Positions 8,270 through 35,683 of a stretch of 64,000 nucleotides of DNA are shown piece by piece. This DNA comes from Hydrolagus colliei (lineage: Eukaryota). Under the pieces are notes generated by a model. It saw nothing but the letters and a program-made list of their open reading frames with translations. It was not told where the DNA came from and searched no databases. How positions within the stretch are numbered: position 1 is the stretch's first letter; the number at the start of each line of letters is the position of its first letter. Location of the stretch: the NCBI GenBank assembly GCA_035084275.1, contig CM068742.1, positions 142,476,001-142,540,000 on the forward strand, read 5' to 3'. Both the position numbers and the translations under genes were made by a program.

Positions 8270-10465
8270 TCTCCTCCTCCACCCCCCACCACCCCGCACA
8301 CCCTCTCAGGTGCCTTAGAGTCATCTGAACTCATCCCCAATGACCTATCCCCCTTGATAAGTCTCCCCCACAACTCTCTCTCCACTATTCTCGATGCCCT
8401 TACTCCTCTCATTTCCAGAACCGCCTCCTAATGACGGTCGACACGCTGGTACACCAGCCACCTCTGCTCCCTCAAGGTACAAGTGAGTGCCACTGAACAC
8501 ACCTGGATTAAATCGAATTTAACAGTCCATCAGAGGATCTGGCTGGACCTTATCAAATCTTACTATTCTCTCCTCACCTCCACTAAATCGTCCTACTCTC
8601 TGACAATCTTGGAGGCTAGGGACAACCTCAGGCTTCTCCATCACCAATGGGTTTCTCCTCCCACTCTCTCATGCCTCACCCATTCTCTCCTCCAAAGCCA
8701 ACTGCAATGAGATATTGGACTTTCTCAAACCAAAGTCAAGGGGAACTGCTTAGCTGCTTCTGCCCTTCCATCAACTATCCCCTCGCTAGCTCCCCCTCAC
8801 ATCCGGCGCCTACCCATCCCTCCCTCCACACCTTCAAAACATGTTTCCCCCTCTCTCACCACCACTATAACCAGCATGAAACCTCAGTCCTGATGAAGTG
8901 TTGTAGACCCGAAACGTTGACTCCTTTTCCTTTCTCCGTGGATGCTGTTTGACTTGCTGAGTTTCCCTAGCAACTTTTATTTTTGTTTCAGATTCCCAGC
9001 ATCTAAAGTATTTTGTGTTTTGCTTAAATTACCTCTCCATTTCTAACTTCCCCTTCCTTTTCAAGGTCCTGGAAGGGATAATTGCTTTCCAGCTTCGCTC
9101 CTTCCTCTCATGCCACTCGCTTCACAAATCCCTCCCATCAGGTTTCCATTCCACCCTCAGCACAGAAACAGCTTTGGTCAAAGTGACAAATTATAATTTG
9201 TCCATCTGCGACCAGGGCTCCCTCTGACTCCTCGTTCACCTTAATCTTTCTGCTATCTTCAATACCATTGACCATTCTATCCTTCACCACTGCCTTTCCT
9301 CTCACACCGTTTCAGATCCTACCTCTCACAACATTTCCACTTCATCCCCACAAATGATTTTGCCCCCAGCCCCCACACTGTCTTGTGTGGTGTTCCTCAG
9401 GGCTCTCCTCTTCTTCAATATCTACATGTTCCTCTTGGTGACATCATACGCAGACATGGGGTTGAGTTCCACATCTTTGTAGATGACATGTATCTCTACC
9501 TTTCTGCTTCCACCCTCAACTCCAGGACCACTGCTATCCTTACAGAATGTCTCTGAGACATCAAGTACTGGATTAGAGCTAACTTTCTACAGTTGAACTT
9601 CAACAAGACCGATGCCCTTCTGGTTCCTGTCAGCATCTCCACACCTCAGGCACTGACAGCATCACCACCCAAGGATGCACATTCCACTTTACTGAGGCAG
9701 TCCAGAAACTTGGCATCTTATTTGACCCTCAACTGCCTTCATACTTCACATCAGTGCCACGATCTACTCCGTCTTTCCCCACCTCCTCAACATCGCTCAG
9801 CTCCGCCACTCTCTCACGCTGCCGAGTCCCTCATACGCTCATTGCTTTGAGACGTCTAGAAGACGTGAAAAGTGCTGCATCAAATGCAATGATTATTATT
9901 ATTATTATTAGTTATAACATTCAGGTTCAACTTTGCAAACGGTATGCCCGCCAGCCTCCCCAACTCCTCCCTCTACAGCCTACAGATCATCCAGAACTCT
10001 GCAGCCTGTGCCCTGCACCAGGCTCCGCAACCCCATCATCCCCATCCTTGCCTGACTCCACTAACTTCCCATCAAACAGAGGATAAAGTTCAAGATCCTG
10101 GTCACCTTCAAAGCCCTCCATGGCCTTGCTTCTCACTACCTCTGTGACCTTGTAACACCCTACCAACCTGCTTGCTCCCTCTGCTCAGTGGGCAAAGGCC
10201 TGCTTCATGTTCTCTGCCTCACCTATCACACTATTGGTGGTTGGGCCTTCAGCCACTTTGCCCCCACCCTCTGAAATTCCATCCCGCAGTCCCTTCGCCT
10301 CACCACCTTCCTTGCCTCCTTCAAGATCATGCCTTTGATCACACTGCTTCCCCTCACCCTCCATCTTCTCCGATCTCGACTCCCAGCTCCTGGCCGAAAC
10401 ACTGATTGTGCAGCACCATGGGATGTCCTCCCGATGTGAAAGGTGCTATACAAATGTAATTTTGT
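8270..10465 (+). mobile_element. Degraded L2-clade LINE (RT region to 3' tail) with nested insertions
   Basis: RT remnants STETALVKVT, GVPQGS, HIFVDD; L2 tail at ~10410-10465. Confidence 0.8.
8860..9022 (+). mobile_element. Penelope-like terminal fragment with degenerate hammerhead core, nested in the L2
   Basis: CTGATGA...GACCCGAAACGTTGAC then TTTCTCCGTGGATGCTG; related copy on minus at ~40765-40860. Confidence 0.55.
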
Positions 10466-10570: not shown

Positions 10571-11635
10571 TGGTATGTTGTTGTAGGTGAACAGAGAGTG
10601 AGCGACAGAGAGAAAGGGAGGAAATGAGAAAGAGAGAGAGAGGGAGACACATACACACACACACATAGAGAAGCAGGAGGCACACATGCATGCAGAAAGA
10701 GGTAGAGAGGCAGAGACCTTAATGTCCAGAGAGGGAAAAGCACTGTGAAAATATATTCTGGTTAATAGTCCACTTTCAGGTAGTAGTAATTCTAAAACTA
10801 TTCTCCACAGGAGTAGAATAAAACATCGTCAAACTAGCAATTTCCATAGCATGAGACCATTGCAAAAGCAGCAGCTGTAGATAATAAGGTTCATAACCTG
10901 CAACGTCGGTAACTAATGTCCCACTTAAATACTGTATTTAACAATTTCATTATTTCCATATGTCTATGGGAAGGACACATCAGTCACCATGAAACCATAC
11001 AGATTAATGTTGCAGGGTTGATTCCTGCGCAGTGTTAGCTCCTCTCAGGCCTGGGCAGTCATTGGAACATGACAATTGTTCTCAGTATTAACGGGTCAAA
11101 CAGCCAGGATTCCTGCTGTGTAAATGGTGCACGATGGCAGGAAAAGCACCTTGGAAAATAAAATGTGTGAGCCTGTCTCTCTCTTTCTCTGTCGATGGAC
11201 TTACTTGACAATTAAGCATTGTTTTCAATACCATTATATTTTAAAAGTATGTTTCAGTGATTTATAAATTGCTGAAGTGAACAACTCCAAAATCTCCAAT
11301 GAAATCCTAGCAATTTAGCATTACTGGATGACCACATTGATGGTGGTAGGGCTTAATTTTCCTTACAGTACAGCTATATGAAAATTGAAGTTAAACTCAC
11401 TGACAAATGTCTGCCTTTTGCCTTTGATTAGACAAAAAGAATCAATAAATCATAATAAAATAATCCTTGAATTTGAATGTGGAGAGAGTGCAGGTGCTAT
11501 CCTGCACTCTCTCCACCTCGCCTGGCGATAGATGATATTTTATATTTGATATCATCTATTTAATCTAATATTTGATCTAATAGTAATATTAGATATATAG
11601 TGATTTTTTTTTCACACGGACAACCCGCTCCCGAG

Positions 11636-11800
11636 GCTAGAGATCTTCGGGCTGGAACGATCGCGGGGACAGAGCTTTCACGCTGTGCACCGCTCAGCCC
11701 ACCAGCTGGAGCCGGCTTCCATCGCTGCCGGTTCTTCCTCTATGGGCAGTCGGCCAACGAATACCATCTTTTTGGGACGACGGGGAGGATCACGGAGGGA
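11636..11800 (+). pseudogene. PEBP-family (PEBP4-like) coding fragment
   Basis: [36 protein letters not shown] resembles recalled PEBP4 [36 protein letters not shown] (GxHRY motif degraded). Confidence 0.75.
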
Positions 11801-11938
11801 ATGGCGGCCACTCGCTGTCGGCGCTTCCTCCGGCTGTGCGAAGAGTGGCCCCTCGACAGGACCTGGGTAGGCCGCGACCTCGGCACTTTCCTCAGGCAGC
11901 GGGTGGCGCACGTCTTCCGCGAGGGGGAGAGCGCCCAG
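11801..11938 (+). pseudogene. UQCC2: UQCC2 (MNF1) N-terminal 46-codon fragment
   Basis: [46 protein letters not shown] vs recalled human [46 protein letters not shown]; no other UQCC2 exons found. Confidence 0.9.
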
Positions 11939-11945
11939 GTGCTGC

Positions 11946-12058
11946 AAGCGACGGATCATCTCGCGGGAGATCCAGACGGCGATCGGGCTGCTGCTGCTGC
12001 TGCTGTGCGAGCTGGCCAGACACACCGTGTCCGAGGTGCCAGGGCCATCACAGAGTCC
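11946..12058 (+). pseudogene. Histone H2B C-terminal fragment, frameshifted, with (CTG)6 expansion
   Basis: [38 protein letters not shown] vs H2B [37 protein letters not shown]. Confidence 0.88.
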
Positions 12059-12869
12059 CCAGGTTCACCGACTGAGGAGCCGGTCGGTTTGGGGGCCTGA
12101 CACCACACTGGGCCCTTTTTTCCGCGCCCTTTTTTTCCCGCCATCTCAGGGATCGTCCGGGCGGGCGGCGAGGACAGGGAGTGGTTGCTGGACGATTGTT
12201 GGTTATTGTTTGTTGCTGTTTTTGTTGTTAATATTATTGCTTTTGTTGTTTATTATTGTTTATTATTGTTGTTTGATTCCCCCCACCCCTGCCCCCATTT
12301 TCTTCTTCCCTCACTCCCTTTCCCCACTTTCTCTCCTCCCTTTTCCCCTTCCCTCCCTCTTCCCTCTTCCTGATCTTGCCCCCTCCCATCTTTCCCTCCC
12401 TCTCTTCCTTGCCCCTCTTTCTCCCCCCTCTTCCTCCCTAACCCTAACCCACCCCACCTTTCCCTCCCTCTCCCCCCTTACCCTCTTTTCCCCCTTTCTC
12501 CCCTGGCCCCATTTTCGCGATTGTTTGTGGGGACACTGCTGTGCGCAATTTGGCTGCCGCGTTTCGCCCACAAATATACAGTCGACTTTCCTGCCATTTT
12601 TCCCCCTGCCTCGACCCCTCCCCTTTTGCTTCTTTAGCCCCTTTTGCCCCTAGTCCCACTTCCGTGACTGATTGTGGGACACTGCTGTGCGCAATTTGGC
12701 TGCCATGTTTCGCCCACTAATACAGTTACTTTTCCTACTATGCTTTATCCTGCCCTGATCCTTCCCACCCTGTTCTTGTCCTACCTGACTGTACAGCGCC
12801 TTGGGATGTCCTCTCGACGTGAAAGGCGCTATATAAATGTAAGTTTTGTTGTTGTTGTTGTTGTTGTTG

Positions 12870-13140
12870 ATATAGCACTTTTTAGATCTGCTAGACATCT
12901 CAAAGCGTTTCACAGAATATACTGTAAAGTAGATTGACCATATATTTGTGGGAAAAACGCGGCAGCCAATTGTCCACAGCAGTGTCCCAACAACAGTTAT
13001 GGATGGAAGTGACCAATTTTCTTATTTGTTTTTCTTGAGGAATTATTATCAGGCGTGTGGAATAAGAAGGTTTCTCCCTACTGGGAATCAAACCTAGGTC
13101 TTCCGCGTGCAAGGTGAGTGCTCTAACCACTGAGCTACAA
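12870..13140 (-). mobile_element. tRNA-derived L2-tailed SINE; its tail end is displaced to 11452-11476 by the insertion
   Basis: Head GTAGCTCAGTGGTTAGAGCAC, core GGGACACTGCTGTG..., same family as 45488-45792. Confidence 0.85.
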
Positions 13141-14167
13141 TAAAAGCTACTATATTAATATAGAATAAAAATTGGAACAGAATCATTCAAAACATTTTGC
13201 AGAATCATTTGGAATAGTTTATATGACCGAGTTTGTATTCTGATTGAATTATGTTCTTGATTAATCTATATTAAGAAATAATATTATCAAATTTATTATT
13301 GTACAAACATACTGTACAAACATTCCTAACATAATTTCTGCTGCATCAGCTTACTGATTTTGAGACTGCATATTCTTTTACAATAATTAAAGCAATGGTA
13401 TTAATACTTGTCTTCCTTATACTGTATATAGTCACATTTAAAAAAACTTTACCAAGTATTTTTGCTAATATTATCATCTGCAACAAGAGACACAAAAACA
13501 ATGAGGCACAAACACAATATAACCTGATGAGTACTCAATTATCCTACCTGTGGTATTAGTCTATAGAATATTCATTCTAAGGATATATTTTGCAGCAATT
13601 ACCACTCAGTGTAGTTTGCCTACCGATTTACTGTATTTTTCTCAAATTAATATTCATAGAAGGTACCTCTCAGAATCAGGTTATTTGGCTCATCCAATCC
13701 CACCAGTGTTTATACTCCACACAAATGCACGAGAAGTGCCAAGAGAAATTATAAAGATAATTCATTGATGGAGCAGCTGCATCTATCAGGCAGCAATGAT
13801 CGTTTTCCTTATCAGACAAATAATAACTTTGTACCCAAGACTTCTGAAACCATAGAAGATCTCAAACTGAAAAAAGAGAGAATATAACTGAATAAAAATC
13901 CCTTTCTTTTGTTCCGTGCAGTTGGACATCTACTGCGACTGGGACTAATAAGCTGTGGAGACTTCTGTGAAAGAACCACAAACCACAGGACAGAACATCT
14001 AAACTACTGGCTGACAATACAAGCACCACCTCAGCCACCAGAACTGCAGATGCAGACAGATTAGGTAATAGAGCTAGCTGCACTTCTAATCTGCACCATT
14101 AACTAAGACACCGGACAGCTCCACCAGACAAATCTAAACACAGAGACATAAACAGTATCATACTTAC

Positions 14168-28442: not shown

Positions 28443-30467
28443 CCAGCTCCTGGAGACCTACTTACTTACTTACCCCAAAGAGAAGAATAAAAAATTGGCC
28501 ACTAATCCTGTGATCTTGTTATGAAGAGTGCTAAGTATATTTGCCTGCGTTCAAAAATATCAATATTTATAGAATAAATTAATCTTCTTGCTCATTTTAG
28601 TGCATTGCTGAATGTATATCACTCATTGGCTGCTGGATTCACAAATTTCTCTTGACTTGAGATGAAACCAGCAAATCCAAGCTTCCATTGTGTGATGAAT
28701 TATAGCACACACATAACCTTTTTTAAATGCAGAAACCCATAGATGGAGGATAACTATCTTGAGCAGGTAATACTATATCAAGATGAGCTAAATATATCAC
28801 CAGTGATTAAATGATTAACAAGTGTGAGCTGAACATCTGAGAATCTCAGTCTCAATTTAATATCTATGTAAGATGAGCCTGATTTCCTTTGTAAAGTGTC
28901 TGTGGTGCAGAGGCGCTTTCATGCGGGAACCTTCCTTAACAGAGTTAGAGATGGTCCTTATGCAAGACTGCATAATAGTTAATACTTTACATGGATAAAA
29001 TGAATTAATTTTAGGCAGCTCGTTACTATCACGATTATGTATGAGATAAATAATGGACCCAGTAAGTCAAAAGTCAGGATATAGCATACTGTATGAATTA
29101 AATAAATTTAAAGAGTGAAACTGTGACGCATTTCAGATCTACTGAAATATTTTTTAAGTCACGGTCAAGAATCTGCTGCTTGGCCCTTTATTTCCACAAT
29201 TAAACCATAATTGTAGTAGCATTACCCACAAGGTCTTTTCACTCAAATGTACTCATTATACCAATAATGGTACCCAGAACTAATTATATTATATTTGCAA
29301 TGCTGAATGGAAAGCCTTGGTTATTACGGCTAGAATATTTGTATCTTAAACACACATAAATATCCAGTGTTGTACAAATACATATTGAATTGGTTATTTC
29401 TTGTACTGCTACAGAAGAGAAAAGATAATTAGAATAAACTTTTTTGCACAAAAGTCAGCCATTTGGGCCATCATTATTAAACCACACGTTAGGATGGACC
29501 ATTTGAACTTCCGGAATGCAAAGCAGTGCTTGCAATAGGCTAAGTCCTATTTATGCACAACTGTTTAATACTCAGCAAAATAAATATATTTTACGTGAAA
29601 ATGTCTATAAGTTGTATATAGGTACACCTACCAATGTATTGCTTGCAAATTTAACCCCAGTTTTAAACTCAATTTAATATTTTACAAAAACATATCTTTG
29701 CAAAACAGCATGTTGTATCAGTCTCTACAGATTTCGCTGTAGTTTTATACCTCCCATATCAAAACCACTGAGGAGGTATAATTCTAACTTGCACACCCAC
29801 TCATACCCACAGAATTTCCACAACTCTAGAATTTTTCTCTTCAATTCTATCACATTTCCTCTTGTCCCTTAAAGGCTAGACCATCATGAAAGAGAACATA
29901 AATAATGTCTCCACTGCTACAAGTAAATCACAAGAGCAAAGGGTAGCCAGGAAAAGGGTGGATAACTTGGAAGGATGAAATGAGATGCGCCAAACAAATC
30001 TAATCTTGTGAACCAGTTCAGCTCCTGCAGACCTACTTACTTACTTCCCCCAAAGAAGACAATCACAAATTGGCCACTAATCTTGTGATCTTGTTATGAA
30101 GAGTGCTAAGTATATTTGCCTGCGTTCAAAAATATCAATATTTATGGAATAAATTTATCTTCTTGCTCATTTTAATGCGTTGCTGAATATATATCACTCA
30201 TTGGCTGCTGGATTCACAAATTTCTCTTGTCTTGAGATGAAGCCAGCAAATCCAAGCTTCCATTGTGCGATAAATTATAGCACACACATAACACATAATT
30301 TTTTTTATATGCAGAAACCTGTAGATGGAGGATAACTATCTTGAGCAGGCAATACTATATCTAGATGCCATAAATATATCACCAGTGATTAAATGATTAA
30401 CAAGTGTGAACTGAACATCTGAGAATCTCAGTCTCAATTTAATTTAATATCTATGCAAGATGAGCCC
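28443..30467 (+). repeat. Local direct duplication of ~440 bp (28443-28880 and 30018-30467)
   Basis: Long shared runs such as GTGATCTTGTTATGAAGAGTGCTAAGTATATTTGCCTGCGTTCAAAAATATCAATATTTAT. Confidence 0.9.
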
Positions 30468-33656: not shown

Positions 33657-33830
33657 ATGGTAAATTGGTCATTTCAATCCACGACTGTTCGTGGGACACT
33701 GCTGTGTGCAATTGGCTGCCGCGTTTCGTCCACAAATATACAGTCTATTAACTTTGCAGTACATTCTGTGAAGTACTTTGAGATGTCTAGAAGATGTGAA
33801 AAGCAATGTCCCAAATGCAAGGATTATTAT
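33657..33830 (+). mobile_element. 5'-truncated SINE, same family
   Basis: Core plus tail. Confidence 0.8.
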
Positions 33831-34017
33831 AGCAATGTCCTCAAACCCAGATTATTATAGCAATGTCCTCAAACCCAGATTATTATAGCAATGTCCTCAA
33901 ACCCAGATTATTATAGCAATGTCCTCAAACCCAGATTATTATAGCAATGTCCTCAAACCCAGATTATTATAGCAATGTCCTCAAACCCAGATTATTATAG
34001 CAATGTCCTCAAACCCA
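33822..34017 (+). repeat. Minisatellite, 7 perfect copies of 28-bp GATTATTATAGCAATGTCCTCAAACCCA
   Basis: Directly visible 28-bp period. Confidence 0.95.
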
Positions 34018-35683
34018 GAAGAAGCCAGATGAATCGACAATTTTGATTTAACTACTTCTTCCAGTGGATACATCAGTGAAAAGGATTGCCCAAGAGACAG
34101 CGGAGGCAGATTGTATTACCAATTACAAAAGGGAATAGATGTGTCCATACTGATGGCAGAGAATTTGTGGGGAGAAAGAAATAGCGAAGAACAACAACAA
34201 CAAAATTACATTTATAGAACGCCTTTCACATCGGTAGGATGTCCCAAATGGTAATGATGTTTTACAAACATGTACACTCCTGTGTTTTTAAGCTATGTCA
34301 TGTCTAGAAATGCTGTCCAAAGCAAATCGTCGGGTTTTATTCTTGCAGTTTTTAATACCTGTTACAAATACACAGTTGGTCCTACTTTACAATATATCCT
34401 GTGAAGGGCATTGAGATTTCTCATTGGTGTGATAAGGCACTATATAAAAGCAAGAATGATTAATATTCAGTGAGCAATATAATGCAATTTTTTATCCCAA
34501 AAATCAAACCACACTCAATGGCAAAGTGATCATTTTTCAAAATGGCTAAAGTGTTAATGTTAAATGGAACTGAATTCAGTTATGACAGACTACAATGAGA
34601 ACAGGTGGCTTTCGTACAGGATAATATCTTTTGACATTTACAGAATAACCGCCTATCAAATACAATTAAAATTCTTTACATCTGTCAGAATCATAATTGA
34701 AATCAACAAACCAAAAGATTTCTAAACTGAAACTCTCTCTCTGGAGGCGAGGCATTTAAGGGGCTTTGAAAATTATGAAAAGTTTAATAAGGTGGACATA
34801 CATATGCTGTTTCCACTTGTTGGTGTGTCTACAACAAGCGGGATTAAATCTAAAATAGCCAGTAGAAATCCTAAAAGAGATTAGGAGGAACTTTTTTTTT
34901 CACAAAGGATGGAAAGAATTGAGAACTCACTGAGAGAACTTGTGATTGAAGGAGAATGCATTCATCTATTTAAGAGGAAACTCAATGTATACACAAGGGA
35001 GAAGAGATTCCTCTGGAGTATAAACACAGGTTTAGCCTATGTTGGGCTAAATAGTCTGTTTTTTATGTTGTAGAGTCTCTGTAATTCCATTTAAGTCGCA
35101 GCCAAGATGTTACAAGCTGGAGAACTGCAAAAAAGAAAAACTAATGGGGCATAACCTAAAGGTAGCCTTTGGCTTCAAGGTCCAGAGACATTTGATAACT
35201 ACTATTCTCCTCTTCTATGCAACAGCTAACACCAGATATATATTTAATTAAATGAAACTCTGCTTTAGCAGATGTGTGGGGCGGAGGGGAGGTTAAGAAG
35301 ACTCGATTCATTTGCCATATTTGCCAACTAGAACTTGCAATTCATCATGAATTACAATTTCTGGTTTGCAAAACTTCGGGCTCACGAATCCCAAACTAAA
35401 ATCCATACAATGATGGAGAAGAAACAGTCAAGGGATTCACAATTTGTGCACCATGAATCTCACAAACTGGATTACATAACAAACTCAACATATTCAGTTT
35501 GTGAATAACACAAATTAGCCCCCACCCAGGATACTACAGATAGACAGAATTCAAGAATCTTTCAAAGTATCATTGTTATTTCACACTTCAGCCAGGTGTG
35601 CTCAGTGACTAGGTGCTGGACTGACAGAATCATTCACCTATTTTTTTTTAAAAGCAACATTTATTCCATGTTCAAATTGTTTA

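Follow-up and report, generated by a model that had tools for sequence, protein, structure and literature searches.

A multi-copy, LINE-tailed composite retroposon family carrying pieces of four host genes, probably assembled by serial exon trapping

We describe a non-autonomous composite retroposon family in which pieces of four unrelated genes, PEBP4, UQCC2, a divergent histone H2B variant and RUNDC1, stand in front of SINE body units and a LINE-type 3′ tail. One copy, 1.39 kb long, lies in the window, i.e., the whole 64,000-nt stretch of DNA that was analysed (Table 1). The family was probably put together by serial exon trapping (splice capture), combined with A-to-I editing that became inherited. 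A composite family of this kind, with unrelated gene pieces, had been foreseen in the original prediction and was borne out. The number of genes had been put at three: PEBP4, UQCC2 and H2B were all recovered, and RUNDC1 had been missed, as had the precursor families, the GT/AG junctions, the VNTR and the A>G pattern.

Layout, gene pieces and copies of the element

The element sits in a tRNA-SINE that had been claimed to be split between 11476 and 12871, and the flanks are indeed in register with five unsplit copies of this SINE in the window. The host SINE is on the minus strand, so that the insert is antisense to it. Element sequence begins at 11479 rather than at the proposed 11477, and the window copy falls short of the 5′ end that is usual in the family by about 9 nt. 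The TTGA reported at both junctions is present, but is indistinguishable from overlap with the (TTG)n tail. Most copies are without a target-site duplication: at least 8 nt are common to both ends in 6/98 copies, versus 0.8 expected, and part of these few cases is again overlap with the (TTG)n tail. The two ends of the element are not inverted repeats of each other. The predicted 5′ hairpins are real; the full-length copy L007 folds with −79 kcal/mol (z = −10.95, 0/200 shuffles).

Table 1. Features of the element and its insertion site (positions in the window).
Feature	Position	Strand	Remarks
Host tRNA-SINE 3′ end, left of insertion	11450..11476	-	alignment to 5 unsplit SINE copies in the window
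5′ hairpin	11479..11521	+	stem 16 bp here, 21 bp in full-length copies; 6-nt loop 11495-11500
AT-rich hairpin block	11528..11600	+	hot spot of A>G clusters
Linker, source not found	11601..11635	+	abuts first base of PEBP4 exon 4
PEBP4 coding exon 4, complete	11636..11681	+	= L075:2263-2308, AG/GT bounded
PEBP4 coding exon 5 up to its donor, spliced to exon 4	11682..11794	+	= L075:7226-7342
UQCC2 exon 1, from 6 nt before ATG to exon-1 donor	11795..11938	+	host gene L031/L040, 4 exons
12-nt unit, VNTR in other copies, one unit here	11919..11930	+	
Divergent histone H2B variant, C-terminal part, decayed	11940..12073	+	one extra G in front, 11939
RUNDC1 N-terminal coding pieces	12074..12195	+	12074-12115 and 12151-12195, internal deletion
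TTG/TTA tract and polypyrimidine tract	12196..12520	+	inherited from oldest family
Two SINE body units, without tRNA head	12521..12727	+	12521-12583, 12668-12727
LINE (L2-type) 3′ end and (TTG)n tail	12750..12870	+	
Host tRNA-SINE remainder	12871..13144	-	tRNA head at 13073-13144

The identity of the gene pieces was established by comparison with host and Callorhinchus genes. Among named proteins, those of Callorhinchus milii come closest for UQCC2, RUNDC1 and PEBP4, which makes a holocephalan host probable. The UQCC2 piece matches its Pfam family (E = 1.7e-8) and Callorhinchus UQCC2 (85%); the host gene has four exons on contig C29. The PEBP4 piece, for which searches of Pfam, the PDB and by words gave no match, is 58% identical to Callorhinchus PEBP4 over 40 aa. 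The host PEBP4 gene consists of six coding exons on contig C44, and the 4.9-kb intron between its exons 4 and 5 has been cut out exactly at its GT and AG in the element, which demonstrates an RNA stage. The 220 kb surrounding PEBP4 contain no match to the linker (11601-11635). The H2B piece matches a host H2B variant, being closer to the divergent variant on contig C194 (80%) than to canonical cluster genes (74-76%; 20 histone loci). A degenerate H2B pattern gave 0 matches, because the genes use other codons. Two divergent H2B variant genes with open frames lie on C194, at 23.3-23.9 kb (L097) and 27.7-28.1 kb (L101), the former with an extended N-terminus rich in serine and glycine, and with a long 3′ UTR preceding the stem-loop.

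RUNDC1 was recognized from an old copy, the translation of which is 79% identical to Callorhinchus RUNDC1 (E = 5e-14); the window piece retains 10 of 15 residues. A search of the assembly for the intact host gene gave 33 matches, all of them to residues 1-115 and due to retroposed pieces, and the missing gene may reflect an assembly gap or gene loss. The context of the RUNDC1 junction was therefore taken from the old copies L155-L157.

The PEBP4 and H2B frames have decayed in the element. The first 46 codons of the UQCC2 frame, with residue changes, are open in 82/99 copies, so that chimeric peptides are possible, if the element is transcribed. In the window, the UQCC2 ATG opens a 99-codon frame (11801-12100). 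At the end of the UQCC2 piece, a 12-nt unit has become a VNTR: 62 of the 99 scored copies have one unit, 22 have two and 15 have 4 to 24, with a longest segment of 479 nt.

A search with 11477-12170 returned near full-length matches of 92-100% identity for 40/40 scored, confirming the suspected multi-copy family over a one-off. (The 40 were scored out of 944 first-look candidates, a figure that is not a copy number and probably includes older relatives.) With at most 2 mismatches allowed, a 25-nt piece of the 5′ hairpin was found 183 times in the genome, as against 0 times in the control. A UQCC2 profile yielded matches for 150/150 scored (283 candidates), the best one being the host gene; such UQCC2-like matches could mislead gene annotation. 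Thirty loci that were compared all reach the tail, and their flanks differ except in one duplicated pair. A total of 123 loci were examined, of which 15 were set aside for upstream sequence common with another locus and two had no 5′ arm. All five landmarks are present in 98/105 oriented copies. Measured in 100 copies over 663 columns (six of 106 were excluded as rearranged or unparsed), the median divergence from the majority sequence is 1.7%; the median divergence between nearest neighbours is 2.2%. The dispersed copies have a fixed 3′ end, a tail of variable length and, in some cases (e.g., L034), a 5′ truncation.

Three checks that might have overturned the original prediction turned out the other way: the element is multi-copy, its gene families were recovered, and a sequencing run of the same organism from another study, used as a check for a chimeric assembly, covers all 30 bins. 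(Run depth was not taken as copy number.) A contig from run X5 spans 11380-11508 with 0 differences, only 30-32 letters of it lying inside the insert, at the limit of what counts as bridging. From run X6 came a single contig (11615-11761, depth 2), which does not suffice to assign the element to that organism. The terminal hairpins and the general lack of target-site duplications might suggest capture at the DNA level, of the Pack type or by a Helitron, or else a one-off retrocopy or an assembly chimera. We consider these explanations refuted, with next to no probability left to them, by the intron loss, the variable tail, the 5′ truncations, the 183 copies and the second study. Pack-MULEs and Helitrons capture DNA, as a rule with its introns. 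The element resembles them in bringing multi-gene fragments together in a non-autonomous element, but here the intron is gone and the tail is that of a LINE. Of the two analogies that had been drawn, SVA was right and Pack-type was wrong, given the exact removal of the PEBP4 intron.

Several individual loci were unusual. L032 and L260 share at least 3.4 kb of upstream sequence at 96% and differ in their 3′ flanks, which may be due to duplication or to a long transduction. In L259 and L262 (G000:C36:2.89 and 3.44 Mb), an AT-rich unit has expanded after the hairpin and both flanks are common; this, together with four equal-scoring UQCC2 matches on the same contig, is consistent with segmental duplication. 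In L005, L026 and L242, insertion took place at almost identical positions of another repeat, which may point to a preferred target. L197 (G000:C1:117.74 Mb) contains an inverted copy of its own 5′ arm and flank inside the PEBP4 piece and is a template-switch product. Elsewhere in the window, a 28-nt tandem array (7.8 copies, 97%) lies at the tail of a SINE copy (33802-34019), and a 274-nt direct repeat of 94% identity occurs at 28444-28717 and 30019-30292, 1575 nt apart.

Order of capture and gene-to-gene junctions

Older families in the same genome show that the genes were captured in the order RUNDC1, H2B, UQCC2, PEBP4. A RUNDC1-only layer (L154-L157) carries RUNDC1 sequence, in three copies from the 5′ UTR, followed by the TTG and polypyrimidine tracts and, where intact, by one SINE unit and the tail. 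H2B stands in front of a shortened RUNDC1 in L128, L133 and a cluster on contig C28. Another 14 copies, which are dispersed, align to the window with 70-79% identity from 11940 onwards; these H2B-RUNDC1 copies have a longer H2B and the RUNDC1 deletion, and lack UQCC2 and PEBP4. In runs of two other organisms, depth was high only from 11961 onwards, nil over the hairpins, and that of a single gene at UQCC2 and, in one of them, part of PEBP4. The H2B-RUNDC1 layer is thus shared, while the front end appears lineage-specific, with the proviso that these runs are contigs and cannot prove absence.

The cluster on C28 (G000:C28:8.41-8.70 Mb; L102, L104-L107, L112-L132) comprises about 20 diverged H2B-RUNDC1 copies within 290 kb. 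Upstream flanks are common in the five copies compared, and the cluster is a local amplification of one old insertion. About 150 nt of extra common sequence upstream of the RUNDC1 start in L155:1300-1500 and L156:1300-1500 possibly represents another capture on a side branch.

At all three gene-to-gene junctions, a GT donor is joined to an AG, in one case with an extra G. At the H2B-RUNDC1 junction, the H2B gene continues with GTAAAT where the piece stops, and RUNDC1 resumes directly after an AG. At the UQCC2-H2B junction, the natural UQCC2 donor is joined to a CAG that comes with a brief stretch of pyrimidines in the older family, and the one extra G is found here in nearly all copies. At the PEBP4-UQCC2 junction, the natural PEBP4 donor is joined directly after an AG in the UQCC2 5′ UTR, which has no pyrimidine tract. 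In these pieces AG makes up 8-10% and GT 4-7% of the dinucleotides, and by our informal estimate, even with a few alignment registers allowed, three GT/AG junctions are unlikely to have arisen by chance; splicing is therefore the best reading. At the linker-exon 4 junction, 3 nt are the same as at the exon 3 end, which fits splicing and a template switch alike.

These observations can be accommodated in a scheme in which the retroposon would use an L2-type reverse transcriptase via its 3′ tail and would grow in the 5′ direction by repeated splice capture. In a first step, an RNA piece of the RUNDC1 first exon would have become joined, in a manner we can only suppose, to the TTG and polypyrimidine tracts, a SINE body and a LINE tail. 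A transcript of the H2B variant would then have been spliced from a cryptic GT to the AG in the RUNDC1 piece, and UQCC2 exon 1 subsequently to the AG in H2B. Finally, PEBP4 exons 4 and 5 would have been spliced to the AG in the UQCC2 5′ UTR, and the linker and hairpins put in front. Each chimeric RNA would still have ended in the tail, and could thus have been reverse-transcribed and given rise to a new family. By analogy with SVA_F1 and pt_SVA_D6, the captures presumably took place in cis, after a copy had landed inside or behind the donor gene.

The 5′ end of the element bears on how its copies are transcribed. The 5′ arm of the hairpin is kept in 90/106 rows, and the loop occurs in both orientations (65 vs. 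37 of 105 copies, with 3 other). At 23/27 nt this arm agrees with the UQCC2-H2B junction of the element itself, a match that 0/2000 shuffles reach, and the hairpin therefore probably arose by internal duplication and fold-back; a 21/24 match between the hairpin arm and a LINE remnant (E = 0.088) is a weak lead only. A search for a ribozyme or structured-RNA family at the 5′ end turned up just 12 weak Rfam matches, none of them anywhere near the gathering score. In five of ten chosen copy pairs (one locus, L199, gave no row), 6-66 nt are shared beyond the position of the hairpin while the 3′ flanks differ, which points to starts just upstream of the source copies. No match to a tRNA, 5S or 7SL-derived head was found inside the element. 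Pol III would terminate at the T runs close to the 5′ end. Transcription probably starts at or just upstream of the 5′ end, by Pol II.

A search for founder copies was negative in 20 kb of UQCC2, in 220 kb of PEBP4 and in the examined parts of the H2B variant contig, where the sole relative was L068, a 5′-truncated copy without RUNDC1. An assembly search for a UQCC2+H2B intermediate with a longer UTR gave a single match, the gene itself. Trans-splicing between separate RNAs, rather than exon trapping in cis, would account for these missing founders as well as for the GT/AG junctions. However, founders that disrupted a gene could have been lost or be polymorphic, and the 5′ transduction pairs show read-through into copies. 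Furthermore, trapping in cis is the route described for SVA in the available parts of PMC6139936 and PMC4859970. We therefore consider it unlikely that the family arose in trans.

An alternative to splicing is that the reverse transcriptase exchanged modules by template switching at short common sequences. The short sequences common at the junctions, the extra G and the inverted flank copy in L197 are all in keeping with such jumps, and template switching is likely the true cause of the hairpin and of the join between RUNDC1 and the tail. For the three gene-to-gene junctions it is improbable, since three pieces end before a GT, two of them at natural donors, and three begin after an AG, while a mature mRNA would give a jumping enzyme no reason to halt at exon ends. 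Splice capture in cis remains our preferred reading of these junctions.

A>G changes in the 5′ cassette

The changes between the host exons and the majority sequence of the element are predominantly A>G (21/30). This type affected 21/72 A versus 2/53 T for T>C (p = 3e-4), and it was rare after G (1/21, compared with 20/50 otherwise; p = 0.0035). The state in the gene is ancestral, because Callorhinchus PEBP4 keeps the host residues and other organisms read A at 11730 and 11865-11867. A similar bias separates the H2B gene from the older family (19/68 A vs. 4/49 T, p = 0.009). Among 100 copies, 68/117 A sites vary to G as opposed to 31/149 T sites to C (p = 5e-10), and after a G 16/47 A sites vary compared with 52/70 otherwise (p = 2e-5), with the caveat that changes common to several copies are not independent events.

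The changes are also clustered. Of the 29 differences in L210, 25 are A>G, spread across 11527-11884, and 0 are T>C. Such private bursts are rare, with one clear case in 100 copies. Thirteen copies have a common cluster of 10-14 A>G changes, from which it follows that an edited copy became a source. Little or no excess was seen in the controls, i.e., the 3′ part of the element (0.0016 vs. 0.0056), the host SINE (0.027 vs. 0.041) and LINE ends (0.036 vs. 0.030).

Clustering and depletion of an upstream G are marks of ADAR, according to the accessible parts of PMC2873906 and PMC5663115, and from the pattern in the copies we infer A-to-I editing of the 5′ cassette by this enzyme. The edited zone reaches beyond the firm hairpins, from which we would guess at an antisense partner RNA. 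At the RNA stage, ADAR would edit the cassette, the reverse transcriptase would read inosine as G, and edited copies would serve as new sources. Clusters of a single type of change fixed in genomic retroelement copies are likewise known from APOBEC-type DNA editing; that editing is G>A, whereas the element has sense-strand A>G with the upstream-G depletion reported for ADAR in RNA (PMC2873906, in the part available).

The A>G changes could instead stem from enzyme error, GC-biased conversion or transcription-linked mutation, with the capture scheme left intact. The cassette is CpG-rich, the common changes are not independent and the evidence consists of DNA sequences. None of these processes would readily explain a bias that is strand-specific, clustered as in L210 and depleted after G, in the face of controls without such an excess, and we regard them as a doubtful source of the pattern compared with ADAR editing.

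Comparison with known systems and meaning

The tail of the element matches that of a LINE remnant in the window, ending near 10462, at 85% over 62 nt; the remnant itself gave no Pfam match. We take the tail to be of L2 type on the strength of its motif, of this remnant and of PMC5499810, rather than of a library match. The element shares its 3′ end with a LINE and ends in a short repeat, the traits of a LINE-dependent retroposon. The element was rejected as a member of the SVAs, SINEs, Pack elements or retrogenes on the grounds of its tail, its lack of a small-RNA head, its intron loss and its multi-copy state.

The closest parallels are SVA_F1 (MAST2 exon 1) and chimpanzee pt_SVA_D6 (STK40 exon 1), in which an exon spliced to an internal acceptor likewise founded a subfamily. 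As described in the accessible part of PMC6139936, a GC-rich first exon was joined in these cases to an acceptor in a composite retroposon, giving 84 and 94 copies. Further 5′ transductions and a GC-rich VNTR of variable length are also common to SVA and the element, but the VNTR differs in its unit, here 12 nt born inside a captured exon. The tail is of the L2 type with (TTG)n, whereas SVA has poly(A) and uses L1, and the hexamer, Alu-like and SINE-R domains are lacking, every part having been traced to another source, as are, mostly, target-site duplications. Moreover, four genes are nested here, each capture founding a family, and the host is a holocephalan-like fish.

From the same group of fishes, CmiSINE and SacSINE1-CM (partner L2-2_CM) resemble the element in being non-autonomous, with a LINE-derived 3′ tail and SINE body units, to judge from the available text of PMC5499810. 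The element differs in its lack of a tRNA head, its length of 1.4 kb and its protein-gene pieces, the comparison being by description rather than by alignment of consensus sequences. In PIPSL, too, distinct genes were joined at the RNA level and then retroposed, but PIPSL is one protein-coding locus made by L1 from two genes, whereas the element is a mobile family of unlinked genes with decayed frames (PMC3747384, in part). The element is not mentioned in the parts seen of PMC5499810 and of one chimaera genome paper, the supplements of which may hold repeat libraries that include it. No published account of such an element, or of inherited A>G editing in a retroposon family, was found in the literature, Repbase and Dfam lying outside this search.

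Exon trapping that founds retroposon subfamilies has been described for hominoid SVA and L1. On balance, we lean towards the view that the present family is an independent SVA-like lineage on L2 machinery in chimaeras, with at least three serial trappings over a time longer than the species splits, and with A-to-I edits written into the germline genome. If so, edited RNAs would have founded new subfamilies round after round, raising the G content of the CpG-rich cassette. By a view given in the available part of PMC3747384, ordinary mRNAs are not copied by LINEs that depend on a specific 3′ tail. The family would show a way round this demand, in which the tail is kept and host exons are spliced onto the front. 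Because precursors remain in the genome, the steps of capture can be dated and tested. The source gene and a 3′ control, both unedited, also occur in one genome together with an edited sublineage, and the A>G pattern would therein provide a countable case of RNA editing turned into heritable DNA change.
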